A stretch of DNA of 64,000 nucleotides from NCBI GenBank assembly GCA_021799445.1, contig JAJZAM010000003.1, positions 596 through 64,595 of the forward strand, read 5' to 3'. Below, piece by piece: positions 3,349-36,022 of this stretch. The DNA comes from Actinomycetes bacterium (GTDB taxonomy: Bacteria; Actinomycetota; Acidimicrobiia; Acidimicrobiales; Palsa-688). Below the pieces are notes generated by a model. That model made no database searches, was not told the DNA's origin, and saw nothing but the letters and a program-made list of their open reading frames with translations. Both the position numbers and the translations under genes were made by a program. The first letter of the stretch is position 1; each line of letters opens with the position of its first letter.

Positions 3349-5451
3349 ATGGCTGAGTCCAACGCAGTACGCGCCAAGCCGCTAGACAAAGTCCGCAACA
3401 TCGGGATCATGGCCCACATCGATGCGGGCAAGACCACTACTACCGAGCGGATCCTTTTCTACACCGGCATCAACTACAAGATCGGGGAGGTCCACGAAGG
3501 GGCCGCCACGATGGACTGGATGCCCCAGGAGCAAGAGCGGGGCATCACGATCACCAGCGCCGCTACCACCTGTGAGTGGGAAGGCACCCGGATCAACATC
3601 ATCGACACGCCCGGTCACGTCGACTTCACCGTCGAAGTCGAGCGGTCCCTTCGAGTTCTCGACGGGGCCGTCGCGGTCTTCGACGCCGTCGCCGGCGTCG
3701 AACCTCAAACCGAGACCGTGTGGCGCCAAGCTGACAAGTACGGCGTGCCGCGGATGTGCTTCGTCAACAAGATGGACCGCATCGGCGCCGACTTCTACCG
3801 CTGCGTGGACATGATCAAGGACCGCCTCGGCGCGACGGTAGCTGTGGTGCAGCTACCCATCGGCTCCGAGAGCGAGTTCAAAGGCTGCATCGACCTGCTC
3901 GGAATGCGAGCTCTCGTGTGGAACGACGAGGCGGCCAAGGGCGAGAAGTTCGACGTCGTCGACATCCCCGCCCACCTCGTAAGCGAAGCCGAGACCTACC
4001 GAAGCGAGCTGGTCGACACGCTGTCCAACTTCGACGACTCGATCACCGAGAAGTACCTGGGCGAGGAGGAGATAACCGCAGCTGACTTGGAGAGCGCCCT
4101 GCGCGCCGCCACGATCGCTGGCCAGGTCGTGCCCGTCCTGTGCGGGAGCGCGTTCAAGAACAAAGGCGTTCAACCCATGCTTGACGCCGTCGTAGCGTAC
4201 CTTCCAAGCCCGATAGACATTCCTCCCACTCGCGGCACGGACATGAAAGGTATTGAAGAGCTCGAGCGTAGAGCGGACGACTCGGAGCCCTTCGCCGCGC
4301 TGGCGTTCAAGATCATGACGGACCCCCACCTCGGGAAGCTGACTTACGCCCGGGTTTACTCGGGCAAGTTGACGTCGGGCAGCGGGATCTTGAACTCGAC
4401 CAAGGACCGCAAGGAGCGGGTCGGGCGGATCCTTCAGATGCACGCAAACCACCGGGAGGACCGGGACGCGGCTTTCGCTGGGGACATCGTCGCCCTTGTC
4501 GGTCTCAAGCAGACGACGACCGGCGACACGCTGTGCGACCCGGGCTCACCGATAGTCTTGGAGTCGCTCGACTTCCCCGAGCCGGTCATCCACGTCGCTG
4601 TCGAACCGAAGACCAAGAACGACCAGGACAAACTCTCCAGGGCTTTGCAGGCCCTCTCCGAGGAGGACCCGACCTTCCAAGTCCACTCCGACGAGGAGAC
4701 AGGCCAGACGGTGATCGGCGGCATGGGCGAACTGCACCTAGAAGTGCTCGTAGACCGGATGCTGCGCGAGTTCAAGGTCGACGCTAACGTCGGCAAACCG
4801 CAGGTCGCCTACCGCGAGACGATCAAGAACGCTGTCAGCAAAGTCGAGACCCGCTACGTCCGCCAGACCGGCGGTAGAGGTCAGTACGGTCACGTGGTCC
4901 TCGACTTGGAGCCGACAGGACCCGGAGGCGGCTACGAGTTCGTCGACAAGATCACCGGGGGTATCATCCCCAAGGAGTACATCCCGTCCGTCGACGCCGG
5001 CATCCAAGACGCGATGGCCTCCGGGGTGCTCGCAGGCTACCCGGTCGTCGACGTTAGAGCAACGCTCGTGTTCGGCTCCTACCACGACGTCGACTCGTCG
5101 GAAATGGCCTTCAAGATCGCCGGTTCGATGTGCTTCAAGGAGGCTTGCCGCAAGGCCAAGCCCGTCCTGCTGGAGCCGATCATGTCCGTCGAGGTGGTCA
5201 CACCCGAGGACTACATGGGCGACGTGATCGGCAACCTGTCGTCACGGCGTGGCAAGGTCGAAGGTATGGAGCAGCGCGGTAACTCCCAGGTCGTGAGGGC
5301 GCAGGTTCCGCTGGCCGAGATGTTCGGCTACGCTACCGACCTGCGCTCCCGAAGCCAGGGTAGAGCTACCTATAGCATGCAGTTCAACTCCTACCAGGAA
5401 GTTCCAGACTCGATCGCCCAGGAGATCGTGAAGCGGATACGGGGAGAATAA
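3349..5451 (+). CDS. fusA: elongation factor G
   Basis: 700 aa with G-domain motifs [17 protein letters not shown] and NKMDR; str-operon position. Confidence 0.98.
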
Positions 5452-5570: not shown

Positions 5571-6761
<1,191 letters not shown>

Positions 6762-6893: not shown

Positions 6894-7220
6894 GTGGCTG
6901 ACGCCGCCAAACAACGCATCCGTATCCGCTTGAAGGCCTACGACCACGAGATCTTGGACCAGTCCACGAAGAAGATCGTCGAGACGGTGTTGAGAACACA
7001 GGCTGTGGTGAGAGGCCCGGTCCCTCTGCCTACCGAGAAGAACCGTTACACGGTTATCCGCTCACCTCACAAGTACAAAGACAGCCGCGAGCACTTCGAG
7101 ATGCGGGTCCACAAGCGCCTCTTGGACATCGTCGACCACACCCCCAAGACGGTCGACTCGCTGCAGCGGATCGAGCTACCCGCAGGCGTCGACATCGAGA
7201 TCAAGATACAACAAAACTAA
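6894..7220 (+). CDS. rpsJ: 30S ribosomal protein S10
   Basis: 108 aa with [18 protein letters not shown]...[42 protein letters not shown] start with GGAG 8 nt upstream. Confidence 0.97.
7199..7220 (+). repeat. att core copy A (native rpsJ 3' end, codons IKIQQN-stop)
   Basis: GATCAAGATACAACAAAACTAA. The same 22-mer or close variants recur at 11786, 14778, 16412 and 17392, each next to recombinase sequence. Confidence 0.8.
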
Positions 7221-7241
7221 TGCTGTTAACTTGAGACGCGT

Positions 7242-7277
7242 TGACGTAGGGCCTCCCGTATGGGAGGCCCTACGTCG
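7242..7277 (+). terminator. 16-bp stem-loop 22 nt after the rpsJ stop (candidate U-tract-less terminator or recombinase-binding palindrome)
   Basis: TGACGTAGGGCCTCCC-GTAT-GGGAGGCCCTACGTCG, with 12 perfect pairs plus 4 flanking pairs. No U-tract on either strand. Identical copy at 11829-11864. Confidence 0.4.
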
Positions 7278-8208
7278 CGCAGTACGCCATACGGTACGCC
7301 AACGCCGGCACTCGGCGGTACTACGAGCGGCACCTGAAGGCGCTCGTCTCGTTCGCCGACGTGGACCATCCCAGGTTGCTCTCTTAGTCGGTCGTCCTGG
7401 CGCGGTGTGGGCAGGGGAGAGCGAACAACACAGTTCGCAACACGCTCTGCCGGGCGTGCACCTTGCTGCGCTGGAGTGTGCGTCAAGGCGAGGTCGATGC
7501 CGCCTTGATCGGGGCGCTGATGAGCCGGGACAATCCGCTGCGCCAGATCCCGCAGCTCTACGGGAAGGCGCGGGGTGTGCGCCCGGCGCGCTGGCTAAGC
7601 CACTCGGAGGCGTCCGGACAGTTGATCGGAGCGTGTCGGGACGGGACCGACCTCGGGTTGCGGGACGAGGCACTGATCCGGCTCGGCCTGGCGGGGATGC
7701 GGGCGGCCGAGATCTTCCGCCTACGGGTCGGCGACCTCCGTCTCCACGACGCCGAGGCCCGGATCGAGTGGGTCGGTAAGAAGCGTCGGGCCCGGGTGAT
7801 CGTGCCGGGCCCATCGTTGATCGCCACTCTCGACGCCATGTTCGATCGGTGGCAGCAGCTGCTCGGTCGGCCGCTACGCCCCGACGAGGCGGTCATCTGT
7901 TGTGGCAAGTCCGGCGCCGGCAGCGGGTTGCTCATTCCCGATCAGCCGATCGCCCAGACGTCTCGGTGCGGCAGATCGTCGCCCGCCGGGATCAACGGGC
8001 CGGACTCGGGCACGTCGCTCCTCACGACCTACGGCGAACCGCCGCCGGGCTCTTGCGCCGGTCAGTCGGCCCGGACCGGTCGCACCACTTCGACCTACTG
8101 GACATCCAGAAGGTGCTCGGCCACTCCGACCCCGCCACGACGATGCGCTCCTACCTGGACCCTCTCGATACCGGGGTGCTCGGTCGGGCGGCCGGGGTCC
8201 TGGACTGA
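7250..8208 (+). pseudogene. tyrosine recombinase (phage-integrase family), disrupted
   Basis: Frame 2 gives ..RYANAGTRRYYERHL..HPRLLS-TAG(7385-7387)-..RANNTVRNTL..LRW..RDEALIRLGLAGMRAAEIFRLRVGDL (Arg box). Catalytic box II lies in frame 1: HVAPHDLRRTAAG...IQKVLGHSDPATTMRSYLD (7849-8208 ORF). I found no start codon upstream of the N-terminal domain. That makes one in-frame stop plus one frameshift near 7945-7975. Confidence 0.8.
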
Positions 8209-8301
8209 ATGGCTGCCCGGCGGCCTCTCCGCCCTACGGGCGGCCGGCCGCCATCGTCTGGAACGGGGGTGCCTACCGGCCACTCGGCGCCGGGGTGCCG
8301 G

Positions 8302-9570
8302 TCAGGCGATCTCCCCGGTCTGGTAGTCGACCTTCGGTACCAGTCTCAGGCGCTTCCGCTCGGCCGCCGCGTAGGCCCAGGCGTAGAGACGGGCGTAGTC
8401 CTCCGGTCCCAGCCCGCCAGCGGTGAGACCTTGCCAGTACCGGCGCTTCTTGGCGTCCTCGGAGAGGGGCCGGCCCTTGGAGTGGCGGCGGAGGCCTTCA
8501 AGGCGCGTGAGTCGCCGGTTGAGCTGATGCCAGACGTCCTCGTCAACCTCCAAGAGCTCGACGGTCGGCTTGAACCCGGACTGGTAGCCGAACGTGCCGA
8601 AGTAACGGACGACGGCGCCGAACCCATCGGGCGGGACCTTCTGCTTCGCCTTCGATGCCTCGCCGGCCATGTAGGCGGCGATGGCCGCCCTTCGTGTCTT
8701 CGTGGCCACCTGGTCGTCCTTGGCGAAGAAGACGGTGCGGACGTTGACGCCGCGGCGGGCGTGATTCTCGACGGTGCCGTCGGTGACGATCTGCGACCAC
8801 CAGCGCAGCATCTCCGTCGCCGTGTCTCCACCGAAGAGCTCGCTGATCGGAGGTGTCCACCACCTTCCCTGGTGCTTGCCGTGGCGGCGGACATTCTGGT
8901 TGCCGAGACGGGTGAGCATCTGGAAGCCGCGATAGTCGGCGTCGGGCATCGACTCCGGGCCCTTCATCAGCAGGTGGAGGTGAGGTCGGCCCTCGGCCAG
9001 CTGGAACTCCTTGGACCAGAACCCGACCGGCCGTTCGCCGAAGCCGCGGTACCACGCCTCGCCGAACGCGCGGCGGTGACGCTCGAGCGTCCGGCCGTCT
9101 GGGACCCACTGCTTCCAGTCGCCCGGGTAAGTGAGCGTGATCCATAGCGGCCGGTCACCGAGCATCTCGAACGGAAGCGACAGCACCCAACGCCACATCT
9201 CGCGCCGGCTGCGCTCCGACATTCCTTTGGCTCCCCGGCCCAGGCGCTCCTTCGCTGCTTCGCGGGCCGCCTCCAGCTCCTTGGACCCGAAGTACTCGGC
9301 CACCTCGTCAGGATCGAGTGTGTCGAGGAAGAGCTCTTCGTTGTCTCGGCGTTCCAGGTCTTCGGCGGCCAGGATTTCCGCTTCCTCGTCTGGGTCGAGC
9401 CGGTTGAACTCGATCGATTCTCCAGCCTCCTCCAGGTCCTCGAGCTGGCGTACGACCTGGTCCATGAGCGGACCGAGGCGGGCCCGGCCGAACTTCGTCC
9501 GCAGTCCGAGTTGGTGACGTAGCCGCACGTAGCCGGGTGCGACCTCGACGAAGAATCGCTCACGGGCCAT
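8302..9570 (-). CDS. HUH rolling-circle replication initiator (RepSA-like, AICE/plasmid type)
   Basis: 422 aa with motif I LWITLTYP, motif II GRPHLHLLMKG (HUH) and motif III RRAAIAAYMAGEASKAK (catalytic Tyr). Confidence 0.75.
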   Translation of the reverse strand: MARERFFVEVAPGYVRLRHQLGLRTKFGRARLGPLMDQVVRQLEDLEEAGESIEFNRLDPDEEAEILAAEDLERRDNEELFLDTLDPDEVAEYFGSKELEAAREAAKERLGRGAKGMSERSRREMWRWVLSLPFEMLGDRPLWITLTYPGDWKQWVPDGRTLERHRRAFGEAWYRGFGERPVGFWSKEFQLAEGRPHLHLLMKGPESMPDADYRGFQMLTRLGNQNVRRHGKHQGRWWTPPISELFGGDTATEMLRWWSQIVTDGTVENHARRGVNVRTVFFAKDDQVATKTRRAAIAAYMAGEASKAKQKVPPDGFGAVVRYFGTFGYQSGFKPTVELLEVDEDVWHQLNRRLTRLEGLRRHSKGRPLSEDAKKRRYWQGLTAGGLGPEDYARLYAWAYAAAERKRLRLVPKVDYQTGEIA

Positions 9571-9608
9571 GATGGCCTGACATCTCCTCTCTCCTCTCGG
9601 CGCGCACT

Positions 9609-9626
9609 ATTGTCCGCATTGTGCAC
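9609..9626. promoter_or_regulatory. conserved box ATTGTCCGCATTGTGCAC upstream of rep
   Basis: About 40 nt upstream of the rep start on the minus strand. Repeated at 13740-13757 (ATTGTCCGTATTGTGCAC) upstream of the rep pseudogene. Contains a direct ATTGT..ATTGT repeat. Confidence 0.35.
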
Positions 9627-9678
9627 CGTAGCTGTGACGGGTTTAGTTGCCCCGACCTGACGTCGTTCGGCTCAGCTG

Positions 9679-9698
9679 CCGGGATTGCCGCATCCCGG
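9679..9698. other. conserved hairpin, candidate double-strand origin for the Rep protein
   Basis: CCGGGAT-TGCCGC-ATCCCGG. The equivalent position in module 2 (13848-13863) has GGGATT-GCAG-AATCCC, embedded in the shared flank CGTTCGG. Confidence 0.35.
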
Positions 9699-9755
9699 CG
9701 GCGGTCAGCGCCGATCAGGCAATCTGTTAGTGACGGCCAGACAGCGAGGTCAGCG

Positions 9756-10226
9756 GTGAGCACCTCCGACACGCATCCCTTGTTGCTGCCGCCGTCCCCG
9801 TCGTTCCGGTGCACAGCACTTGCCTGCAAGCAGAAGTACGGCGAGCGGCAGTACTGGGGCTTGCTGACCGTCAAGCCGGGTGTGCTGACCTTCGCCCCGG
9901 CGGGGACATCTGCCGCCTATCCGTTGCTTGACCGATTCTCCACGTGGTTGCTCAACCTGACCTCAGGGGTTGAGCCAAACCTGGGCACGGTCGTTCACAC
10001 CCAACCCACGTGTGCCCTTCTCCGCGTCCCTAGTGGCTACTACCGATCCTGGCTGCTGGTCACTGGCGATTCCCGATACGGAGACCCGAGCCGGGTGCTG
10101 GTCGGGCTGCGAACGAAGCACTACGTCCCAGACGCGCTCCGATGGGCTGGGTTCACGGTGACCGAGGAGCAGACAACCAAAGACGGTCTGATCGACACTG
10201 TCCGCGATCCTGGTCCAGCCACGTAG
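9756..10226 (+). CDS. hypothetical protein (start uncertain)
   Basis: C-terminal 156 codons of the 9621-10226 ORF. The region upstream of the GTG at 9756 overlaps noncoding sequence conserved with module 2. No family recognised. Confidence 0.35.
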   Translation: MSTSDTHPLLLPPSPSFRCTALACKQKYGERQYWGLLTVKPGVLTFAPAGTSAAYPLLDRFSTWLLNLTSGVEPNLGTVVHTQPTCALLRVPSGYYRSWLLVTGDSRYGDPSRVLVGLRTKHYVPDALRWAGFTVTEEQTTKDGLIDTVRDPGPAT

Positions 10227-10275
10227 CCCACGGCGACATAACGGCGCTCGTCGGACGGGATCCAGCGCCGACGCG

Positions 10276-10581
10276 ATGCTCGGCGACCTCGTCCGAAGGA
10301 GTGTTAGGGGGCATACCATCGTCGACGTGGACCCCCAGGAGGAGCGGCGTAAGAAGATCCGACGACGGGTGATCGGGTTCCGAGTCGGATTGTGGGTATG
10401 CATATCCCTGATGCTGATCGGGTTCGGAATCGCGGCTCTGCTTCACGGTGACTCGGCGGGCGCTGCGATTCTCCTGCCGTTCGGCGTCGTTGCTGCACTC
10501 GTTGCTTTTCGGACTGGGAGCGAGCGCCGAGGACACACTGTGATGACTGCTCTGCTCAGCCGTCGGGACCCTGACACCTAG
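10276..10581 (+). CDS. hypothetical small membrane protein (2 predicted TM helices)
   Basis: 101 aa with two hydrophobic stretches (VGLWVCISLMLIGFGIAALL, AAILLPFGVVAALVAF) after a basic N-terminus. Confidence 0.4.
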   Translation: MLGDLVRRSVRGHTIVDVDPQEERRKKIRRRVIGFRVGLWVCISLMLIGFGIAALLHGDSAGAAILLPFGVVAALVAFRTGSERRGHTVMTALLSRRDPDT

Positions 10582-10706
10582 CACGCAGATCGTTCAGTAC
10601 AGCGCTTCAAGCGGGCCCGACGAGGGCTTCGGTGGACCGCTCGGGATTCGGTTCGGAGTCACGCCGAGAGTCGGGCGGCCTTCCTCCAACGGAACCAGTT
10701 GGCAGC

Positions 10707-10789
10707 GAGTCGGTGATCCCGCCGCCTTTGGCGGCGCTCCGCACGGCCGCATTGAGGCGGCCGCTTGGCTCGAAGGAGGTTTGAACGGC
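10707..10789 (+). other. three-hairpin conserved element, copy R1 (candidate ncRNA or single-strand origin)
   Basis: H1 10720-10736 (CGCCGCC-TTT-GGCGGCG), H2 10745-10762 (GGCCGC-ATTGAG-GCGGCC), H3 10770-10784 (TCGAA-GGAGG-TTTGA). Homologous copies lie at 13999, 15851 and 17587 (partial). Confidence 0.55.
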
Positions 10790-10856
10790 TATGTGACTCC
10801 AGGCATTCGAGGAACCTGTTGGCGGAGTTTCGATCGGATCCGGCATCGGACCGCTC

Positions 10857-10884
10857 TTGACAAGAGTCGGGTATCCCGTACACT
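10857..10884 (+). promoter_or_regulatory. candidate promoter/operator of the DUF1778-GNAT operon
   Basis: TTGACA (10857-10862), 16 nt, TACACT (10879-10884), overlapping the palindrome-like GTACACTTGTACGTAC. AGGAGGA RBS lies 6 nt before the ATG at 10907. Same layout at 17720-17747. Confidence 0.5.
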
Positions 10885-10906
10885 TGTACGTACAGGAGGA
10901 CTTGTC

Positions 10907-11182
10907 ATGGTTACGAAAGATCACCGGAGAGAGTTGCGGCTGTCATCGAGCGATGACGACCTGATCACCGAAGCCGCGGGTCTTCTGGGTTTGTCGGTGT
11001 CCGAGTTCCTCTTGGGGCGGGCTGTTGCTGATGCTGAAGCCATCGTGGACGCCCACCGCACTGTGCGTCTGCAGGAGGATTCCTACGAGCGTTTCCTAAT
11101 GGCGCTAGACGCGCCTCCCCAGCCGGTGGCGAAGCTTGTCGATCAGATCCGCAAGAGCCGGCCCCTGAAGCACGCCGACTGA
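10907..11182 (+). CDS. DUF1778-type (TacA-like) antitoxin
   Basis: MVTKDHRRELRLSSSDDDLITEAAGLLGLSVSEFLLGRAVADAE.... ATG preceded by AGGAGGA. The stop overlaps the toxin start (TGATG). Confidence 0.8.
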   Translation: MVTKDHRRELRLSSSDDDLITEAAGLLGLSVSEFLLGRAVADAEAIVDAHRTVRLQEDSYERFLMALDAPPQPVAKLVDQIRKSRPLKHAD

Positions 11183-11688
11183 TGAAGGTCGAGCGACTCG
11201 GCGAGGAGCACGATCTCGCCGGCTTCAGCTGTGGCAACAAATCCCTCGATGACTGGTTGCGGCTCCATGCCCTGGAGAATCAGCGTCGGAACCTGTCCCG
11301 GACGTTCGTGCTGGTCGACGACGGTGGTGTCGTGGTCGGTTACTACGCGTTGTCGATGGGCGGCGTGGCCAAGGACGATCTACCTCGCACCTTGGGTCGC
11401 AGTCTTCCCAGCTACCAGATAGGGATGGTGCTGCTCGCTCGTCTGGCCATCGACGCCCGCCGCCAGAGGGAGGGGCTCGGTCGTGACCTATTGGTCGACG
11501 CCATCGTCCGTGCTGCCGCTGCCGGTCAGCACGCCGCAGCCAGGTTCATCGCCGTGGACCCGATCGACGAAACGGCCAGACGGTTCTACAGCCGTTTCGG
11601 CTTCCGGAACATCGATGGGGACCAACAAGGCCGCATGTATATGAGAATCGACGAGGCGCTGCAATCGTTTCAAGAAGTCCAAGAATGA
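11182..11688 (+). CDS. GNAT acetyltransferase toxin (TacT/AtaT-like)
   Basis: 168 aa with FSCGNKSLDDWL...GYYALS...LLARLAIDARRQREGLGRDLL...FIAVDPIDETARRFYSRFGF, coupled to the DUF1778 gene. Confidence 0.8.
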   Translation: MKVERLGEEHDLAGFSCGNKSLDDWLRLHALENQRRNLSRTFVLVDDGGVVVGYYALSMGGVAKDDLPRTLGRSLPSYQIGMVLLARLAIDARRQREGLGRDLLVDAIVRAAAAGQHAAARFIAVDPIDETARRFYSRFGFRNIDGDQQGRMYMRIDEALQSFQEVQE

Positions 11689-11739
11689 TGACTGACCGTT
11701 CGGAGTGGAGGAGGTCCGCAGCCGTGTCGGAGGAGTTTC

Positions 11740-11785
11740 GTGCAACTACGGCAGTAAATCCCTTCCAGGGATCCAGGGATCCAGG
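11740..11785 (+). repeat. conserved right-arm sequence of module 1 with (CCAGGGAT)x3
   Basis: GTGCAACTACGGCAGTAAATCCCTT then CCAGGGAT three times (11765-11788, running into the core). The arms at 14748, 16380 and 17362 carry a single copy. Confidence 0.7.
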
Positions 11786-11807
11786 GATCAAGATACAACA
11801 AAACTAA
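11786..11807 (+). repeat. att core copy B (22/22 identical to the rpsJ 3' end)
   Basis: GATCAAGATACAACAAAACTAA. Confidence 0.85.
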
Positions 11808-12792
11808 TGCTGTTAACTTGAGACGCGTTGACGTAGGGCCTCCCGTATGGGAGGCCCTACGTCGCGCAGTACGCCATACGGTACGCCAACGCCGGCACTC
11901 GGCGGTACTACGAGCGGCACCTGAAGGCGCTCGTCTCGTTCGCCGACGTGGACCATCCCAGGTTGCTCTCTTAGTCGGTCGTCCTGGCGCGGTGTGGGCA
12001 GGGGAGAGCGAACAACACAGTTCGCAACACGCTCTGCCGGGCGTGCACCTTGCTGCGCTGGAGTGTGCGTCAAGGCGAGGTCGATGCCGCCTTGATCGGG
12101 GCGCTGATGAGCCGGGACAATCCGCTGCGCCAGATCCCGCAGCTCTACGGGAAGGCGCGGGGTGTGCGCCCGGCGCGCTGGCTAAGCCACTCGGAGGCGT
12201 CCGGACAGTTGATCGGAGCGTGTCGGGACGGGACCGACCTCGGGTTGCGGGACGAGGCACTGATCCGGCTCGGCCTGGCGGGGATGCGGGCGGCCGAGAT
12301 CTTCCGCCTACGGGTCGGCGACCTCCGTCTCCACGACGCCGAGGCCCGGATCGAGTGGGTCGGTAAGAAGCGTCGGGCCCGGGTGATCGTGCCGGGCCCA
12401 TCGTTGATCGCCACTCTCGACGCCATGTTCGATCGGTGGCAGCAGCTGCTCGGTCGGCCGCTACGCCCCGACGAGGCGGTCATCTGTTGTGGCAAGTCCG
12501 GCGCCGGCAGCGGGTTACTGGTTCCCGATCGGCCGATCGCCCAGACGTCTCGGTGCGGCAGATCGTCGCCCGCCGGGATCAACGGGCCGGACTCGGGCAC
12601 GTCGCTCCTCACGACCTGCGGCGAACCGCCGCCGGGTTCTTGCGCCGGTCAGTCGGCCCGGACCGGTCGCACCACTTCGACTTACTGGACATCCAGAAGG
12701 TGCTCGGCCACTCGGACCCGGCGACGACGATGCGCTCCTACCTGGACCCTCTCGATACCGGGGTGCTCGGTCGGGCGGCCGGGGTCCTGGAC
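11786..12792 (+). repeat. about 1.0-kb direct repeat, copy 2 (partner 7199-8205)
   Basis: See copy 1. Similarity ends one codon before the int stop (TGA in copy 1, TAG in copy 2). Confidence 0.9.
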
Positions 12793-12795
12793 TAG
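11837..12795 (+). pseudogene. tyrosine recombinase, disrupted (same lesions as copy 1)
   Basis: Same in-frame TAG (11972-11974) and the same frame switch between the 12050 and 12436 ORFs. Box II HVAPHDLRRTAAG...LGHSDPATTMRSYLD is retained. Confidence 0.8.
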
Positions 12796-13704
12796 CTGCG
12801 TTCGACATCTGATCCCGATGGCCAGCGGCTGGACTCAGCCTCGAGCAGCTCGACGGTCGGCTTGAAACCGGCCCGGTAACCGAAGGTGCCAAAGTAGCGA
12901 CCGACGGTGCCGTCGGTGGTGATGTTCGACCACATTCTGAGTAGTTGATCTGCGGTCTGTCCTCCGTAGCCGCCACCGATCGGTGGTGTCCACCAGCGGC
13001 CCTGACGCTTGCCGTGTTGGCGGACGTTCTCGTTCCCGAGCCGCGTGAGGATCTGGAAGGTTAGGTAGTGGAGATCGGACATCGAGTCGGGGCCTTTCGT
13101 TAGTAGGTGGATATGCGGGCGGCCCTCGGCCAGCTGGAACCCCTTGGTCCAAAAGCCGACCGGCCGCTCCCCGAACGCCTGGAACCAGGCCTCGCCAAAC
13201 GCCCGTCGGTGACGCTCCAGGGTCGCGCCGTCGGCAGCCCATGTCTGCCAGTCGCCCGGGTAGGTGAGAGTGATCCACAGCGGCCGATCCCCGAGCATCT
13301 CGGACGGCAGGGACGGCACCCGCCGCCACATCTCCCGCCGGCTTCGCTCCGACATTCCCTTGGCCCCCCCGACCCAGCCGCTGCCGGGCGGCCTGCCTGG
13401 CTGCTTCGAGCTCCTTGGCTTGGAAGTAATGGGCCACCTCGTCGGGGTCAAGAGTGTCGAGGAACAGCTCCTCGTTCTCGCAGCACGCCTCTTCCTCGGC
13501 GACCAGGATTTCTGCTTCCTGGTTGGGGTCGAGCCGGTTGAGCTCGATCGGCTCGCCGGCGTCCTCTAGGTCCTCGAGCTGGCGGACCACCTGCGCCATG
13601 AGCGGGCCGAGTCGATCGCGGCCGAACTTGGTGCGCAGCCCCAGCTGGTGGCGCAGCCTCACGAACTAGGGGCCGACCTCTACGTAGAAGCGCTCACGGG
13701 GCAC
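12796..13704 (-). pseudogene. HUH Rep pseudogene
   Basis: Homologous to 8302-9570, with GTG..PRERFYVEVGP-TAG-FVRLRHQLG (nonsense), a frameshift between the 12835-13662 and 12792-13451 ORFs, and a deletion of the segment holding the catalytic-Tyr motif (..ITTDGTV|GRYFGTFGY..). The C-terminus is missing. LWITLTYP and RPHIHLL are retained. Confidence 0.8.
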
Positions 13705-13998
13705 GATCACACCCCGGCGACCCAGATCGTGACTGCGACATTGTCCGTATTGTGCACGATGACAGTGACGGCCTGGCGACGAGCGCACTCGGTAGGGGCC
13801 GCCCCTCAAACGTGCGGCGGATCAGCGTCTCGTTCGGAGCGGCTTCGGGGATTGCAGAATCCCGGACGCAGCTGATGCAGGTGGGGCATGCTGTGCTGTG
13901 CAGCATGGCCCGACAGGAAAGCGTCTCCGGTGGCGTCGCCTCGGCACGGTTATCGCCGGTTTAGCGGGGGCTGGCGGCGACACTGCCTATCCGACAAC

Positions 13999-14080
13999 GA
14001 GTCGGTAATCCGCCGCCTTCGGCGTCGCTTGACACGGTCGCCTGGAGGCGACCGCTTGGCTCGAAGCGAGTTTGAACGGC
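13999..14080 (+). other. three-hairpin conserved element, copy R2
   Basis: H2 is GGTCGC-CTGGAG-GCGACC (14036-14053), a compensatory C:G to T:A change relative to R1. H3 is TCGAA-GCGAG-TTTGA (14061-14075). Confidence 0.55.
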
Positions 14081-14163
14081 CTCTTGGCTGCAGGAACCAC
14101 GGGAACCCTCCGGAAGGGATTGAGCCGTGCGCCGGCGAGCGAAATGTATTACACTAATCCCGT

Positions 14164-14421
14164 GTGGAGATCCACGAGTCGGCACATCGACACGGATTCA
14201 CCGACGAGGACGTTCTACATGCGGTCGAGCATCCGGTCGCTGTGGTCGACTTCGATCCGGACTCCAACCCCCCGAAGGTCTTGGTCATTGGACCCGACCG
14301 AGCGGGGAACATGCTCGAGGTAATCATCCTTCTGTTTAACGACGACCGAATCCTTGCCGTTCATGCGATGACTCTTAGGAAGAAGTTCTACCGATTGCTC
14401 GAGGGGACACAGGGTGACTGA
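14164..14421 (+). CDS. small toxin-like protein (family not securely recognised; BrnT/DUF497-like is a guess)
   Basis: 85 aa with GTG start: HESAHRHGFTDEDVLHAVEHPVAVVD...LEVIILLFNDDRILAVHAMTLRKKF. Overlaps the downstream RHH gene by 8 nt. Confidence 0.5.
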   Translation: MEIHESAHRHGFTDEDVLHAVEHPVAVVDFDPDSNPPKVLVIGPDRAGNMLEVIILLFNDDRILAVHAMTLRKKFYRLLEGTQGD

Positions 14422-14701
14422 GAGGAAGACCTATACGACCCGGACCGGCAAGGTGCTGACCGATGCCGACATCGAAGCAATAGCCGATGAGGTCGAACAA
14501 GGCGACTACGACGTGGAGGTTCTCATGTCGAGGCGTCGACCGCGAGGCCGCCCGATGATCGGGGACGCCCCCTCGGAAGTTGTTCCAGTCCGCCTCGATC
14601 CGGCGCTTCGCCACGCGGTTGAGGCCAGAGCGGAGGCGGATCACACGACCGCCAGTGACATCATCCGCCAGGCGCTCAAGCGCTTCTTGGAGGTCGCATG
14701 A
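14414..14701 (+). CDS. ribbon-helix-helix (CopG-type) antitoxin-like protein
   Basis: 95 aa with the C-terminal RHH pattern VVPVRLDPALRHAVEARAEADHTTASDIIRQALKRFL. Confidence 0.6.
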   Translation: MTERKTYTTRTGKVLTDADIEAIADEVEQGDYDVEVLMSRRRPRGRPMIGDAPSEVVPVRLDPALRHAVEARAEADHTTASDIIRQALKRFLEVA

Positions 14702-14777
14702 GGCGGGACACCCAGTGACCGATGCCGACCATGACGCCAACGATGTCGTGCAACTATTGCAGTAGATTCCTTTCAGG

Positions 14778-14799
14778 GATCAAGATGCAGAGCAACTAA
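14778..14799 (+). repeat. att core copy C (17/22; reads IKMQSN-stop)
   Basis: GATCAAGATGCAGAGCAACTAA, preceded by the arm GTGCAACTATTG (14748-14759). Confidence 0.7.
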
Positions 14800-14807
14800 C
14801 GCTCCGC

Positions 14808-15410
14808 GTGGCGGGCGACCACGACGAGTGGTTGGCCCTCTGCGGGTTGATCGACCGGTTCGTAAGCCGCTACACCAACCCGAGGACGTCGCACCAGTAC
14901 CGGGCTGAGCTGACGGCCTTGTTCCGCCACGTCGGTGTGACCCATCCGCGACTGCTCGGCGACGCCGCCGTCAACCTGTGGGTCGCCCTGGCGAGAGCCA
15001 ACAACACCCGTCGCAACCGACTCACCCGGATCTGTGTATTCCTGCGGTGGTGCGCCCGCTACGAGTTGGCTGATCCCAGGCTCGTCGAGGAGCTGCAAAG
15101 CCGTGAGAACCTGCTGCGAGACACGCCTCCGCTGTACGGGAAGCTGCAGGGCAAGTACCCGGCTCGGTGGCTGACGCACGAGGAGGCGTACAACGTCCTG
15201 CTCGGAGTCTGTGACACCAGTGATGTTGGTCGCAGGGAGGAGTTGGTCTTGCGCCTCGGTCTGGCCGGGATGCGAGTGACCGAGATCATCCGGCTCCCCG
15301 ACGGGAGGCGATTCTTCTTCTGGACCGGCAATGCCGAGACCGGGCTCCTCGCCCTTCGCGACGAGGGCTTTCCGGTAGGGCGAGAGGAGCGCTCTGAATC
15401 GAATTGGTAG
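14808..15410 (+). pseudogene. tyrosine recombinase, 3'-truncated
   Basis: Intact N-terminal domain and Arg box (RYTNPRTSHQYRAEL...ARANNTRRNRLTRICVFLRWC...RREELVLRLGLAGMRVTEIIRL). Homology stops near 15290 and no box II (HxxR...Y) follows. Confidence 0.7.
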
Positions 15411-15498
15411 GTGCTGGTCAACTTTGGGCGTTGACTACGAGCTCCCGAACAGGCGTGCCTGGCCGGGCTGTGCACGGCGTCCCCGATACCGACGAGGT

Positions 15499-15759
15499 TT
15501 AGATCGAACCCGGGTAGAGAGTATGGGCCTCGTCCCCGGTGAGCCGCAAGGTCTGGTCTGGGCCAGCCGGCGTGTCCTCGTACAACGCATTACACCTCGG
15601 GCACCGAAGCAGGATCATCCCCCGATCCGCGTTGCTTCCGATCTGGTCGAGGTGGCCGTAGAACCGGTTCGAGTCGTCGCGGCAGTCGTCACAGCCGAAG
15701 TCCCAATCCGACTTCCGAGGCACGGGTACATCCTGCCGGAGCGCGGAGTGACGGTGCAC
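15499..15759 (-). CDS. hypothetical Cys-rich protein (start uncertain)
   Basis: C-terminal part of the 15499-15978 ORF: DWDFGCDDCRDD...ILLRCPRCNALYED (two CxxC pairs, zinc-ribbon-like). The upstream part of the ORF overlaps element R3, so I placed the start at an internal GTG. Confidence 0.3.
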   Translation of the reverse strand: MHRHSALRQDVPVPRKSDWDFGCDDCRDDSNRFYGHLDQIGSNADRGMILLRCPRCNALYEDTPAGPDQTLRLTGDEAHTLYPGSI

Positions 15760-15850
15760 TCGCGCCCACCCGTCCCGCTCGGGACCTCGCTTCCGACGTT
15801 CGGCATAGTCGAGGCGAGAGTCAGTGCCTGAGCTTCCGACTCTTGCGAGC

Positions 15851-15932
15851 AAGTCGGTGACCCCGCCGCCTTCGGCGTCGCCCCCACGGTCGCCTGGAGG
15901 CGATCGCTTGGCCCAGGACAAGTCTGAACGGT
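15851..15932 (+). other. three-hairpin conserved element, copy R3 (most divergent)
   Basis: H2 is GGTCGC-CTGGAG-GCGATC (15888-15905, one G:U pair). H3 is CCAGG-ACAAG-TCTGA (15913-15927), with pairing maintained by changes on both arms. Confidence 0.5.
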
Positions 15933-15998
15933 CACACGGGTGCGAGAACATGGGCACGCCATGCAACGAGTGGACCACCGCGCACCGACGGTGGAACG

Positions 15999-16199
15999 AT
16001 GAGGCCCCCCGAACCTCCGGATCGAATCCTGTACGACCTGGAGGAGGCGCTGGAGCTGCTGGCTGTCTTGGAGGACGCTCTTGAGGTCGTGGCCGGGAGC
16101 GACTACCTCGGTGTGGTGGCCGAGGTCGAGACCGAGGTAAGCAGACTGCACCGTAAACTGGGGTTCGATCGTCCGTCTGGAGGTGAAAATGGCCGCTGA
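15999..16199 (+). CDS. hypothetical acidic helical protein
   Basis: 66 aa (DRILYDLEEALELLAVLEDALEVV...). Overlaps the downstream HTH ORF by 11 nt. Sits where the other modules carry a TA pair. Confidence 0.35.
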   Translation: MRPPEPPDRILYDLEEALELLAVLEDALEVVAGSDYLGVVAEVETEVSRLHRKLGFDRPSGGENGR

Positions 16200-16356
16200 G
16201 CTTCTAAGAGCCCCAGAAGCTGCTCGCCGGCTTGAAATCCCGACGAAGGAGTTGCTGCGGCTCATCTACGAGCGGAAGATCCGCTACGTCATGGTGAAAG
16301 GGATCGCCCACATTCCTGACGATGCGGTGGAGGAGTACCGTGCCAAACCCGCCTGA
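16189..16356 (+). CDS. small helix-turn-helix protein (excisionase/MerR-like)
   Basis: 55-aa ORF, too short for the supplied track: MAAELLRAPEAARRLEIPTKELLRLIYERKIRYVMVKGIAHIPDDAVEEYRAKPA. GGAGGTG sits 5 nt upstream of the ATG. Confidence 0.5.
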   Translation: MAAELLRAPEAARRLEIPTKELLRLIYERKIRYVMVKGIAHIPDDAVEEYRAKPA

Positions 16357-16411
16357 GATAGCCGGTGGCGAGCCGGTCCGTGCAACTACGGTTGCATTTC
16401 CCCTTTCAGGG

Positions 16412-16433
16412 GATCGAGATACAGCAGAACTAA
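16412..16433 (+). repeat. att core copy D (19/22; reads IEIQQN-stop)
   Basis: GATCGAGATACAGCAGAACTAA, preceded by the arm GTGCAACTACGG (16380-16391). Confidence 0.7.
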
Positions 16434-16467
16434 CCGCGCGGTACTAGCGGGCCGCTGGTCCGTGAGC

Positions 16468-16665
16468 TCTGCTTGCGCTACAACAACCCGAACACGCGCC
16501 GTCAGTACGAAACCGAGCTGGCGGCGCTCGTCGCGTCTGCCGGCGTGTCCCCCCAGCTTCGTGACCTACTCGGCCGTGCTGTGCTGGGTGGGCCAGGCTC
16601 GGGCCAACAACACCGTCCGCAACCGGCTGTCCCGGGTTTGCAGTTTCCTGCGCTGGTGCGTCTGA
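16468..16665 (+). pseudogene. tyrosine recombinase N-terminal remnant (frameshifted)
   Basis: LRYNNPNTRRQYETELAALVASAGV in one frame, then ..SAVLCWVGQARANNTVRNRLSRVCSFLRWCV-stop in another. Matches the N-terminal domain of the 14808 gene. Confidence 0.65.
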
Positions 16666-16785
16666 TCGCCGAAGCGATCCCACTTCACATCGAGTCCATA
16701 CAGGAGCAGAGCGAACCGCTCCCCACCCCGGCGGTGGTCGCCTCGATGAAAGTGAGGGTCACACTGACCTGACTGAATAGTGGGC

Positions 16786-17049
16786 ATGCCCCGGGGTGAG
16801 CTTCTTCCACGGGATCGCCATCTAACGTACTGGAACGAGCGCGACCATCCCGTCCCGCACTTTCATGCCGTCCAGGCAGGGCGAAGAGCGTTGGTCTCCA
16901 TTGATGGTGTAGTCCTCGCCGGGGAGATCGACGCCCGGGCGCTAATACGGGTGACGAAGTGGGCTGGCCTTCACCGGGACGAGCTGCTCACCAACTGGGA
17001 GCTGGCCCAGGACAGAAAGCCGATCCGTCCGGTCACACCTCTGCCATAA
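16786..17049 (+). CDS. DUF4160-family protein
   Basis: ..YWNERDHPVPHFHAVQAGRRALVSIDGVVLAGEIDARALIRVTKWAGLHRDELLTNWELA; an alternative GTG start lies at 16780. Confidence 0.7.
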   Translation: MPRGELLPRDRHLTYWNERDHPVPHFHAVQAGRRALVSIDGVVLAGEIDARALIRVTKWAGLHRDELLTNWELAQDRKPIRPVTPLP

Positions 17050-17050
17050 C

Positions 17051-17329
17051 ATGGCCTCCGTGAGTGGGACCTACCTTCCGGTTGTCGTCGGAGTAGCAGT
17101 GATCCGCGACCATGTCCTCCGCCTACTGTTTGATGACGGCACTGTGGGAGACGTCGACTTCTCCTCCGAGGAGTGGACAGGCGCCCTCGCAGCGCTAGGC
17201 GATGCGAAGTACTTCGGCCGCGTTCGGGTGGATGCCGAGGCTGGAACCGTCACCTGGCCCAACGGCGAGGACCTGGCCCCTGAGCCCCTCTACGAGCAGG
17301 CCCGAGCCCACCCGCTCGCTGCCGTCTGA
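17051..17329 (+). CDS. DUF2442-family protein
   Basis: VIRDHVLRLLFDDGTVGDVDFSSEEWTGALAALGDAKYFGRVRVDAEAGTVTWPNGEDLAPEPLY; starts 2 nt after the DUF4160 stop. Confidence 0.7.
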   Translation: MASVSGTYLPVVVGVAVIRDHVLRLLFDDGTVGDVDFSSEEWTGALAALGDAKYFGRVRVDAEAGTVTWPNGEDLAPEPLYEQARAHPLAAV

Positions 17330-17391
17330 GGAGGCCGAGATGACCGAGGAGCCGGAACTTCGTGCAACTATGGAAGTAGATCCTCAGAGAT

Positions 17392-17413
17392 GATCAAGAG
17401 ACAACAGAACTAA
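17392..17413 (+). repeat. att core copy E (20/22; reads IKRQQN-stop)
   Basis: GATCAAGAGACAACAGAACTAA, preceded by the arm GTGCAACTATGG (17362-17373). Confidence 0.7.
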
Positions 17414-17467
17414 ATCTCGATTCCTTTAGTAACCTTGCGATCCTTCCCTGTGGCTAGATTCTATTCG

Positions 17468-17520
17468 AGCCTTCACTCACCGCTACAGCAACGCCGGTAC
17501 CCGTAGGCAGTACGAGACCT
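17468..17520 (+). pseudogene. tyrosine recombinase N-terminal remnant (very short)
   Basis: Reads ..FTHRYSNAGTRRQYET.., matching RY(A/T/N)N..TRR.YE in the other copies. Nothing further is recognisable. Confidence 0.4.
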
Positions 17521-17586
17521 CCCCGGCCCGACAGCAGCACGCAAAACTGTCGCTCTCCTCCACGGCCCAACCCGACCGGCAACACC

Positions 17587-17653
17587 ACGGAACCAGCGGA
17601 CTGCACCAGGACGATACCCGGCGGCCGCTTGGCTCGAAGGAGGTTTGAACGGC
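17587..17653 (+). other. three-hairpin element, copy R5 (internally deleted)
   Basis: Shares CACGGAACCAG.. and GGCGGCCGCTTGGCTCGAAGGAGGTTTGAACGGC with R1. About 34 nt are missing, covering H1 and the 5' arm of H2. Confidence 0.45.
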
Positions 17654-17719
17654 GATGCGGTTCGAGGCATCGAAGAACCTGTTGGCGGAGCTTCGATCGG
17701 ATCCGACATCGGACCACTC

Positions 17720-17747
17720 TTGACAAGAGTCAAGAATCCCGTACAAC
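17720..17747 (+). promoter_or_regulatory. candidate promoter of the second DUF1778-GNAT operon
   Basis: TTGACA, 16 nt, TACAAC; GGGAGGAG RBS before the ATG at 17770. Homologous to 10857-10884. Confidence 0.45.
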
Positions 17748-17769
17748 TGTCCGTACGGGAGGAGTTGCC

Positions 17770-18045
17770 ATGGTTGCGAAAGATTACCGGCGGGAGTTGA
17801 GGTTGTCGTCGAGCGACGACGACCTGATCACCGAGGCAGCAGGTCTTGTCGGCTTATCGGTGTCGGAGTTTCTCTTGGGGCGGGCTGTTGCTGATGCCGA
17901 AGCTATCGTGGACGCCCACCACACTGTGCGTCTGCAGCAGGATTCCCGCGATCGTTTCCTGCTCGCGCTCGACTCGCCTCCCAAGCCGGTGGCGAAGCTC
18001 GTCGATCAGATCCGAAAGAGCCGGCCAATCGTGCACGCCGACTGA
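17770..18045 (+). CDS. DUF1778-type (TacA-like) antitoxin
   Basis: MVAKDYRRELRLSSSDDDLITEAAGLVGLSVSEFLLGRAVADAE...; close paralogue of 10907-11182. Confidence 0.8.
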   Translation: MVAKDYRRELRLSSSDDDLITEAAGLVGLSVSEFLLGRAVADAEAIVDAHHTVRLQQDSRDRFLLALDSPPKPVAKLVDQIRKSRPIVHAD

Positions 18046-18818
18046 TGCAGGTCGAGCGACTCGGCGACGAGCACGATCTCGCTGGCTTTAGCTGTGGCAA
18101 CAAGTCTCTCGATGACTGGTTGAGGCTCCATGCGTTAGAGAACCAGAGCCGCAACCTGTCCCGGACCTTCGTCTTGGCAGACGACGGTGGTGCGGTCACC
18201 GGCTACTACGCCTTGTCGATGGGTGGAGTGGCCAAAGACGAGCTTCCGCGCCGACTGGGTCGCGGGTTTCCCGGCTACCAGATCGGGATGGTGCTCCTTG
18301 CCCGTCTGGCCGTCGATGCCCGCCATCAGGGGGAAGGACTCGGCCGTGACCTACTGGTCGACGCCATCCTTCAGGCCACTGTGGCTGGTCAGCATGCTGC
18401 TGCCAGATTCATCGCCGTCGACCCTATTGACGAGTCCGCGAGAGCTTTCTACAGCCGTTTCGGTGTGGTGCGACGGACCCGGGCCAACCTGGAGCGCGTG
18501 GCGGCCGCTCTCAAAGACCTCAACGCTCGCCTCCGGGTGGCCGGCATGACTGATGAGGACGCCATGGAACTGCCAGTTCGGATCGATCCGACGACGCTGG
18601 ACCGTGCTGGCATGCTCACTTGGATGACCGACGCGGGGCCGTCGGCATGGCTAAACACCGGTTGGCTGGGCTGCTCTACGATGGAGTCTCAACCTCAACG
18701 AGCGCCAAGCTTTGGTCGCGGCACTAGTCAGACTCCCGACTGGCGCCTGTGGTGCGACGGCAGATCCCTCGGGCCGTGGTCTTCCGACGCACATGATGGG
18801 CCTGCTCGGCGTTCATAG
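18045..18818 (+). pseudogene. GNAT toxin truncated at its C-terminus and fused to unrelated sequence
   Basis: Residues 1-141 parallel 11182-11688 up to ..ARAFYSRFG. From about 18470 the ORF reads VVRRTRANLERVAAALKDLNARLRV..., unrelated to the GNAT C-terminus (FRNIDGDQQGRMYMRIDE.. in the intact copy). Confidence 0.6.
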
Positions 18819-35377: not shown

Positions 35378-36022
35378 GTGCCATCCAAAGCGATAGTCGG
35401 CGAGAAAGTCGGCATGAGCCAGGTGTGGGACGACCAGAACCGCGTGATAGCGGTCACGGTCGTCCGGGTAGACCCGGTGCGTGTCGTAGCTGTCAAGACC
35501 CCCGAGCGCGACGGTTACCGCGCCCTCCAGGTCACCTACGGCCAGAAGAAGGCGCAGAGGCTCAACAAGCCCGAAGCCGGACACTTCGCAGCCGCGGGCG
35601 TCGACCCGGGTAAGCGCCTCGTCGAGCTACGCATCGACGACACCGACGGCATAGGGGTCGGAGACGAGATCACCCTCGAAGTCCTCGCCGCCGGCGACAA
35701 AGTCGACGTGACCGCCGTGAGCAAAGGCAAAGGCTTCGCCGGTGGCATGAAGCGCTACAACTTCTCCGGCCAGGGCGCCAGTCACGGTAACCACAAGCAC
35801 CACAGGGCCCCCGGCTCGGTCGGGGCGTGCGCCACGCCGGCCAGGGTGTTCAAAGGAACCCGGATGGCCGGCCAGTACGGGTCCGGCAACGTGACCACCC
35901 TCAACCTCGAGGTCGTAAAGGCGGACACGGAGCGTAACCTTCTGCTGCTCAAAGGGGCGGTGCCCGGACCACGTGGTGGAATGGTCGTCATCCGGGACGC
36001 GATCAAAGGAGGTAAGCGATGA
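35378..36022 (+). CDS. rplC: 50S ribosomal protein L3
   Basis: ..GEKVGMSQVWD...VSKGKGFAGGMKRYNFSGQGASHGNHKHHRAPGSVGA..; GTG start. Confidence 0.97.
   Translation: MPSKAIVGEKVGMSQVWDDQNRVIAVTVVRVDPVRVVAVKTPERDGYRALQVTYGQKKAQRLNKPEAGHFAAAGVDPGKRLVELRIDDTDGIGVGDEITLEVLAAGDKVDVTAVSKGKGFAGGMKRYNFSGQGASHGNHKHHRAPGSVGACATPARVFKGTRMAGQYGSGNVTTLNLEVVKADTERNLLLLKGAVPGPRGGMVVIRDAIKGGKR

Follow-up and report, generated by a model that had tools for sequence, protein, structure and literature searches.

A 64,000-nt stretch of an Acidimicrobiales genome (contig JAJZAM010000003.1, positions 596 to 64,595; its whole length is called the window here) carries, behind rpsJ, a row of modules encoding an integrase and a rolling-circle replication initiator (Rep), and a hairpin-rich element of ~90-110 bases recurs in these modules. 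What does this element do, and does it act as DNA or as RNA? Our comparative analysis shows that it is a real, non-coding, structurally conserved and clade-specific cis element, and that it is carried by integrative rolling-circle elements of Acidimicrobiia which target rpsJ and form a family not described before. As to its function, we tentatively favor a rolling-circle origin-type DNA element that is active as a folded single strand. We give this reading a probability of about 0.45, split about evenly between a single-strand origin (sso) and Rep's nick site, that is, a double-strand origin (dso).

Copies, placement and fold of the element

Alignment, repeat search and self-BLAST recovered the following copies in the window; scores are those of a covariance model.

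10703-10792, plus strand: R1, full copy (111 bits)
10709-10712/10786-10789, 10720-10726/10730-10736, 10744-10750/10757-10763 and 10770-10774/10780-10784: helices P1, P2, P3 and P4 of R1
10764-10769: linker CTTGGC of R1, between P3 and P4
13995-14083, plus strand: R2, full copy (105.5 bits), upstream of a DUF4258-like/RHH cargo pair
15847-15935, plus strand: R3, full copy (99.3 bits) in a rep-less module, upstream of a 66-aa open reading frame (ORF) and an HTH_17 (excisionase-like) gene assigned by Pfam
17560-17656, plus strand: R5, decayed copy (23 bits)

An earlier note on this DNA, made from its letters alone, had reported these four copies and one module without any. All four were found again at their places, also by the covariance model, and module 4 (~16440-17413) yielded no copy in the covariance-model search of the window. 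The conservation continues ~15 nt past the 3' end given in that note. In self-BLAST, R1 and R2 are 83% identical over 87 nt (E 3e-18), R1 and R3 79% (E 8e-13), and R2 and R3 78% (E 2e-14); a covariance model built from R1-R3 retrieved, within the 64-kb window, only these three at E<1e-20, plus R5. The internal deletion ascribed to R5 is there as well: a 13-nt deletion and many substitutions have removed P2 and P3 from its diverged left half, while the right part, from GGCGGCCGCTTGGC (17620) to 17656, equals R1 exactly (3' arm of P3, CTTGGC, P4 and 3' strand of P1). The arms quoted for the second hairpin (GGCCGC/GCGGCC in R1, GGTCGC/GCGACC in R2, GGTCGC/GCGATC in R3) and for the third (TCGAA/TTTGA in R1 and R2, CCAGG/TCTGA in R3) read as described.

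Further loci (numbered L001 and onward) came from three sources: Rep homologues, metagenome contigs scanned with a Rep profile, and genomes, one per species, scanned without bias for the DNA pattern. Over these loci the covariance model found 22 strong copies (64-111 bits), 21 of them distinct; 18 distinct copies lie beyond R1-R3, in metagenomes and metagenome-assembled genomes (MAGs) of Acidimicrobiia, so that the additional homologues on which the earlier note had made its proposal depend do exist. All 22 reside in rpsJ-linked arrays of int/rep/cargo modules, a co-occurrence with rep and int that the note had left to be checked. The DNA pattern matched 106 stretches of the genome collection, of which 11 hits in eight loci were real copies and the remainder chance, and a 31-bit match in a Solirubrobacteraceae MAG was discarded as lying inside a 1485-aa ORF. 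Viral contigs scanned by DNA pattern and by Rep gave nothing, and neither did phage records searched by Rep.

Within the modules the order is constant: att, int, rep (antisense), variable accessory genes, the element, cargo, att. At every locus the element is antisense to rep and 1.1-1.8 kb from its start, and the accessory genes in between vary by lineage (sigma-like and 352-aa genes, 268-aa, 363-aa and 191-aa genes, and others). The first cargo gene follows 50-120 nt downstream (~300 nt for the HicAB type), the cargo being of the TacAT, DUF4258/RHH, o66/HTH_17, HicAB or DUF4160/DUF2442 type. To the left, the flanks of the copies are unrelated; to the right come ~15 semi-conserved bases (rTGGCTGCrrGrAyC) and then promoter or operator sequences specific to the cargo type, such as TTGACA-16-TACACT for TacAT (10857-10884, downstream of R1) and GTATTACACTAATC for the RHH types. 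The element is thus a sharply bounded conserved island that lies outside the cargo transcripts and tracks neither the accessory genes nor any single cargo type; the earlier view that it is not simply the 5' untranslated region of the toxin-antitoxin genes stands, since it lies upstream of the cargo promoters. In the clade, defined by a Rep identity of at least 75%, it is present in each of the five modules that have int and rep intact and whose sequence is available (L001, L002, L003, L004 and L174). Among degenerate modules, module 4 and L180 lack it, and R5 and L014 retain only its right end.

The model-fitted alignment has 92.5% of its cells paired (G:U pairs make up 57 of 482 cells), with both-sided changes in nine of the 23 pairs, and none of 500 column shuffles reached the observed pairing or double-change values. 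The compensatory changes proposed earlier from the window copies are therefore confirmed, and pair-breaking substitutions, named in the note as the alternative outcome, are in the minority. P3 (8 bp, loop UGGA) is invariant but for one pair, which is C:G in ten copies, T:A in nine (R2 shows T:A in place of C:G) and C.A in two (L092 and L070b). P3, its loop and the linker (CGCTTGGC) stay nearly invariant while rep diverges to 75% identity, which fits sequence-specific protein recognition; the linker CTTGGC varies in two copies (TTTGG and CCTGG). P2 (7 bp) has undergone two independent double changes (A:T in L004 and A:T in L108b) and bears one mismatch in about half of the copies. More variable are the closing helix P1 and P4, which are jointly 89% paired and include six double-change pairs against 2.0 expected. 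Alternative registers occur in P1 (GTGAYC/GRTCAC in o66-type copies) and 3' of P3 (CTTG with CARG).

The fold is specific to one strand. P2 and P3 are solid near-palindromic hairpins, ~90% and 99% paired on either strand, whereas pairing of P1 and P4 is confined to the strand antisense to rep. In an alignment by MAFFT that took no account of structure, plus-strand pairing reaches 89% in P1 and 83% in P4, as against 58% and 61% for the minus strand. RNAalifold, run without a supplied structure, agrees: its plus-strand result contains P1-P4 (covariation term -1.18), that for the reverse complement only P2 and P3 (-0.11). The plus-strand specificity that the earlier note had read from the G:U (G:T) pairs is borne out by these figures. 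Folding energies of single sequences are unexceptional (RNA z-scores from +0.35 to -0.96, plus strand), and hence the support for the structure is comparative, not thermodynamic.

A candidate rolling-circle origin and its rivals

As the earlier note had stated, the parent element encodes a Rep, for which module 1 has an intact gene.

8302-9570, minus strand: rep, HUH rolling-circle initiator of module 1 (weak match to Pfam PF23343; family alignment; Acidimicrobiales homologues)
9605-9640, minus strand: motif GTCACA-N15-ACAAT..GGACAAT, located upstream of rep, 62-68 nt from its start, and conserved in L001-L014

The protein carries the HUH and single-tyrosine motifs of the phiX174/pC194 superfamily (WITLTYP, HLHLL and AAYMAGEASK), and residues H197, H199, Y300, E304 and K307 are invariant in the family alignment. 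PF23343 takes its name from inovirus G2P and plectrovirus ORF2, and the Reps of small actinobacterial plasmids are distant relatives. A PDB sequence search with the Rep profile returned nothing, and PHROGs nothing useful. The motif upstream of rep is partly retained in relatives whose Rep is 68% identical; it could be the rep promoter, an alternative dso candidate, or both.

Judging from these motifs, Rep would replicate the excised circle in rolling-circle mode. The element-bearing strand, antisense to rep, would then become single-stranded and fold into the four-helix junction P1-P4, which would serve as the recognition structure for replication proteins. Covariation and strand asymmetry support the fold itself; that it forms in DNA rather than in RNA is what we infer. 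As an sso (lagging-strand origin), the element would be where host priming enzymes start the complementary strand. As a plus-strand origin, it would be recognized by Rep through the invariant P3 and nicked just 3' of it in the linker, at CTTG/GC. The two functions may also be combined in one origin region, as in the intergenic regions of filamentous phages.

An origin of some kind is suggested by the backbone island, its fixed orientation, the strand-specific fold, and the invariant hairpin with an unpaired CTTG tract. An sso, as proposed in the earlier note, is compatible with the data: the element is distant from rep and dispensable in relatives, and the second conserved motif, upstream of rep, could provide promoter and dso. 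The part of that proposal that fits poorly is the strand, because a folded strand antisense to rep is unexpected unless the nick falls on the same strand. Nicking at CTTG/GC would remove this paradox, as the folded strand would then be the displaced one. On the strength of the invariant hairpin and CTTGGC, a Rep nick site, which the earlier note did not consider, is an equally serious candidate. The CTTG tract beside the invariant hairpin, a look-alike beside rep in a distant relative and the resolved orientation all speak for a dso or a combined origin.

Look-alikes came from a search for a hairpin followed by CTTGR at loci with more distant Reps.

1871-1970 of L027, minus strand: four-helix look-alike, 81 nt upstream of rep and on its antisense strand
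~5778-5877 of L028: the corresponding look-alike
~1985-2095 of L049: related element

In L027 and L028 (Rep 36% identical), the look-alike shares with the element the P3 loop TGGA and the 3' flank CGCTTGG-TCGGAAG, and its stems are wholly different yet fully complementary. The L027 helices comprise a closing CTCCAC/GTGGAG, then ATGCG/CGCAT, then GCGATGC-TGGA-GCATCGC followed by CTTGGT, and finally CGGAAG/CTTCCG; the tract at the position of CTTGGC is CGCTTGGT, and the DNA fold has a z-score of -3.1. L049 (Rep 32% identical) has a related hairpin ending in CGCTTCGG (CGCTT). Drifting stems around a constant core are the pattern expected of a Rep-linked origin, which makes this, in two lineages only, a candidate link read from sequence. 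Separately, the 45-nt 5' part (..GGGGAGCTCCACCTTGACCCCG..) is nearly identical in L027 and L049. The 12-mer CTCCANCTTGAC, common to L027/L049 and to L019 and L065, was set aside as chance-level; in L019 it lies inside int.

Two further loci bear on the DNA around rep. In L012 (Rep 68% identical), the spacer between rep and TacA (9668-10001, antisense to rep), where the element sits in the window's clade, has two small hairpins, GCCG-CTTGCAC-CGGC and CCCT-TGGATC-AGGG, with CTTG in loops. Nine independent assemblies of one Rep variant (L182-L190) all stop exactly 275 nt upstream of rep, as if a repeat or a variable junction lay there.

Several observations weigh against an origin. In DNA contigs from four metagenomes the array is at chromosomal depth, uniformly so, with no circular, excised or amplified form and no excision or origin-to-origin junctions; these samples thus give no sign of active replication. 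Complete modules with Rep 60-68% identical (L006-L012 and L018) have no recognizable copy, even with search filters off, and an indispensable dso should be present there. Copies are also kept in rep-less modules (R3, L002b, L108a/b and L014). The second conserved motif adjoins rep and could itself be the dso, the element being 1.1-1.8 kb away; and with a nick close to rep on the rep-sense strand, the arrangement of most rolling-circle plasmids, the sso would be expected to fold on the strand opposite to the one that our data support. Across distant Rep loci, hairpin+CTTGR sites are not enriched (21 sites, ~9 of them known copies, versus 6.2 in shuffles), so that the distant link rests mainly on L027 and L028; a generic hairpin+CTTGR+hairpin descriptor was abandoned as too unspecific on the same count. 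Finally, under DNA parameters only P2 and P3 form reliably; most minimum-energy folds omit the G:T-rich P1 and P4, which do form in some copies under RNA parameters.

This last point leads to the strongest rival, which we nevertheless consider unlikely: an RNA with a four-way junction, non-coding or cis-acting and transcribed in the same sense as int and cargo. It could precede the cargo operons as a leader, an insulator or a processing element, or act in trans on behalf of the mobile element. Its strand-specific P1 and P4 lean on many G:U pairs, stable in RNA and weak in DNA, and RNA-parameter folds of R1 and R3 recover the closing helix and P4 where DNA-parameter folds mostly do not. It also has the same sense as the genes that begin 50-120 nt downstream, and the L027 look-alike likewise precedes a gene on its own strand. 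The non-coding RNA that the earlier note offered as its alternative keeps this better folding as RNA in its favor but finds little else. The unrelated upstream flanks leave no conserved promoter, no convincing -10 hexamer lies inside the element, and no terminator follows it. At least for the TacAT type, the downstream position of the cargo promoters puts it outside the cargo mRNAs, and the cargo is functionally unrelated from copy to copy. The note could name no RNA family for it; Rfam gave no match in the window at gathering score, and at E<=10 only two chance-level matches (E ~5) for the element. None of the indexed public RNA runs contains its 31-mers, and among metatranscriptome contigs, those of related elements hold only tuf and TacA/TacT fragments that end short of it, both weak points given the thin coverage.

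Rather less credible is a double-stranded protein-binding site, in which P2 and P3 would be related palindromes (GCCGCC-N3-4-GGCGGC cores, ~27 bp apart) bound by a dimeric protein, be it Rep, the integrase or a host factor, with a role in stability, partition or regulation that might resemble that of the pIJ101-type sps palindromes. P2 and P3 are indeed symmetric on both strands and share the same inner half-site, P3 is invariant in sequence down to its loop, and the Streptomyces plasmid palindromes bound by SpdA2 are a precedent (PMC4170104). However, such a site leaves the covariation and strand asymmetry of P1 and P4 unexplained, and the one variable P3 position changes on both arms together, which points to pairing and not to base readout. 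The accessory region differs in every lineage and supplies no conserved DNA-binding gene as a partner, and the palindrome type is found nowhere else in the window.

An improbable extension of the favored origin reading is that the tandem copies act as successive Rep origins, replication starting at one and ending at the next and thereby releasing a circle of cargo(n)-att-int-rep(n+1). This would explain why the element lies at the border of backbone and cargo, why it is retained in rep-less modules and why hybrid states of the central hairpin exist. If true, it would amount to a Rep-driven route, like the one-ended route of IS91-type elements, that shuffles toxin-antitoxin cargo and mobilizes rep-less modules.

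The same border position, the shuffling of the covarying P3 pair relative to cargo type, and the C.A state of L092 and L070b, as if from a crossover inside P3, could also be taken as marks of a site for cargo exchange, either integron attC/attI-like and used by a tyrosine recombinase, or a plain homology block between tandem modules. We regard this as very improbable: the module borders are rpsJ-derived att sites that share no sequence with the element, cargo also occurs without it (module 4, L180 and L006), and homologous recombination in any conserved block gives the same mosaics. A conserved part of a minus-strand protein gene (frame ..VQT.FEPSGRLQA.V..), which the earlier note had singled out as the frame to examine, is effectively refuted, for although the frame is stop-free in 21 of 22 copies, 1-2-nt indels shift it in five (R3, L070a, L108b, L073 and L026), variability is even across codon positions (0.21/0.27/0.21 in the core), the flanks needed for the rest of a protein are unrelated, Pfam has no match, and the ORF in R1 crosses the TacA promoter and start codon.

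Were the element an origin, it would be the signal for replication in small integrative rolling-circle elements of an undescribed family, which carry exchangeable toxin-antitoxin cargo and split rpsJ from rplC; it would also be a new type of sso or dso for high-GC bacteria and could serve vector building. To our knowledge, few origins have been described in high-GC bacteria, and we know of none in this uncultured acid-mine lineage. Were it an RNA, it would represent a new class of four-way-junction RNA confined to mobile elements. Under both readings the case is clean and testable, given 21 distinct copies, covariation and a marked strand asymmetry.

The module array at rpsJ

The element copies belong to an array for which the last 22-24 bases of rpsJ (..GATCAAGATACAACAAAACTAA) provide the att core; its repeats, each preceded by a conserved arm (GTGCAACTAYGG...CCCTTTCAGGG), delimit five head-to-tail modules in the window (G+C 65%).

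3349-5451: fusA
5571-6761: tuf
6894-7220: rpsJ
7197-7220, plus strand: att core, formed by the rpsJ 3' end; further repeats at 11784-11807, 14776-14799 and 16410-16433, plus a degenerate one at ~17390-17413
7199-11785: module 1, with a frameshifted tyrosine-recombinase gene, the intact minus-strand rep, two unassigned ORFs, the element and a TacA/GNAT-TacT pair
7231-8208, plus strand: integrase (tyrosine recombinase) gene of module 1, split over several frames
10857-11688, plus strand: cargo of module 1, with its promoter, the TacA antitoxin (10907-11182) and the GNAT TacT toxin (11182-11688)
Module 2: integrase as in module 1, broken rep, the element and the DUF4258-like/RHH pair
Module 3: N-terminal integrase fragment only, the element, and the 66-aa ORF with the HTH_17 gene
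Module 4: integrase fragment and a DUF4160/DUF2442 pair, without the element
Module 5: decayed element and truncated TacAT

The rpsJ 3' end thus holds a head-to-tail stack of at least five small integrative elements (7197-18470), and with each of them comes a replacement of that end (att core GGGATCRAGATNCAG...AACTAA). Many metagenome contigs and MAGs of Acidimicrobiia show integration at this same site, and the Rep homologues and DNA runs assign the host to the Acidimicrobiales/Acidimicrobiaceae of mine drainage, sediments and soils. A tRNA or tmRNA remnant was considered as an att-like source of the repeat and dropped: ARAGORN found no tRNA or tmRNA, and att is the rpsJ 3' end.

In self-BLAST, the integrase blocks of modules 1 (7199-8206) and 2 (11786-12793) are 99% identical over 1008 nt, while outside this block the two modules are only 72-83% identical; as both integrases are split over several frames, the likeness suggests that a pseudogene has recently undergone gene conversion or duplication. 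At the junction of these modules, the 8-nt unit CCAGGGAT stands three times in tandem (11765-11788); it occurs once at other junctions. The right edge of the array lies in the TacT gene of module 5 (18045-18818), a truncated or fused toxin gene whose homology ends at ~18463, followed by unrelated sequence and no att. In a metagenome contig (run X2), the end of module 4 (17383) is joined to the att/int start of module 2 (11780), with 17 mismatches, and a related strain hence has a different module order.

In related genomes (L006 and L012), rplC directly follows rpsJ, apart from one element. In the window it starts at 35378, which leaves a 28-kb island between the two genes (7220-35378), and the S10 operon is split by the array and a further island of ~17 kb (DUF427, dioxygenase and other genes). 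About 20 nt past the rpsJ stop, inside the left end of the integrative element, lies a perfect 15-bp hairpin (GACGTAGGGCCTCCC-GTAT-GGGAGGCCCTACGTC; 7243-7276 and 11830-11863), probably a terminator that shields int from rpsJ read-through. Read-through or antitermination toward rplC was dropped as a role for the element, rplC being 28 kb away and a strong hairpin following the rpsJ stop.

Comparison with known systems

A nick site (dso) is indispensable to rolling-circle replicons, and they usually also have an exchangeable sso, rich in hairpins and strand-specific, at a distance from rep (PMC2440964, PMC11600335, PMC4170104, PMC5714925). The known sso types (ssoA, ssoU, ssoT and ssoW, and sti of pIJ101) resemble the element in being non-coding, multi-hairpin and fixed in orientation on a Rep-encoding replicon, as well as modular, parted from rep by accessory DNA and dispensable in some relatives (PMC11600335, PMC4170104, PMC5714925). 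The element likewise accompanies a HUH Rep with invariant HxH and tyrosine, all copies lying in such arrays, and its structure belongs to one strand, P1 and P4 being 83-93% paired there versus 58-61% on the other, in fixed orientation. It differs from the described types in lacking sequence similarity to them, in being shorter (~90-110 nt) and in having as its folded strand the one antisense to rep, an unusual arrangement for a plasmid sso; moreover, it sits on an integrated element and they on plasmids, and the likeness is one of sequence features. The signature motifs of ssoA are RSB and CS-6 (TAGCGT/A). TAGCG is absent from all element copies in the alignment, and the element, if an sso, would therefore be a new type and not ssoA.

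With the dso of pC194, phiX174 and pSAM2 and the hairpin origins of pMEA-type actinomycete integrative and conjugative elements, it may share a hairpin beside an unpaired CTTG tract (PMC2440964). In these the nick region is conserved across relatives and the stems vary, much as a core stays and stems drift between the element and its look-alikes, and the Reps are of the HUH/single-tyrosine type. The nick site of the pC194/pSAM2 family is CTTGAT, with CTTG as its core (PMC2440964); the tract of the element, directly 3' of P3, is CTTGGC, with four of six positions matching, and nicking by Rep at this tract is a prediction. Unlike a dso, the element lies 1.1-1.8 kb from rep and does not occur in every functional relative: it is in five of five intact modules where Rep identity reaches 75% or more, and missing at 60-68% identity (L006-L012 and L018).

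The intergenic origin of Ff phages also has several one-strand hairpins, which there combine plus- and minus-strand origins. Its folded strand is the rep-sense strand, whereas that of the element is antisense; the element also has no sequence similarity to it and no accompanying coat or assembly genes. Streptomyces rolling-circle plasmids have conserved 12-bp palindromes, present as two to three repeats between rep and sso, that bind SpdA2 and affect stability (PMC4170104). Like these sps repeats, the element contains two related short palindromes, highly conserved amid variable elements and placed between rep and cargo or sso; unlike them, it is joined by no spdA-like or other conserved accessory gene, and the strand-specific P1 and P4 are not part of sps. 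Integron attC sites are imperfect palindromes at the 3' end of a cassette, and an IntI-type integrase recombines them beside attI/Pc, whereas the element is on the 5' side of the cargo, is highly conserved in sequence, and leaves the module borders to the rpsJ-derived att. Taken as a kind, the element is thus known; its family, its host lineage and its fold are new.

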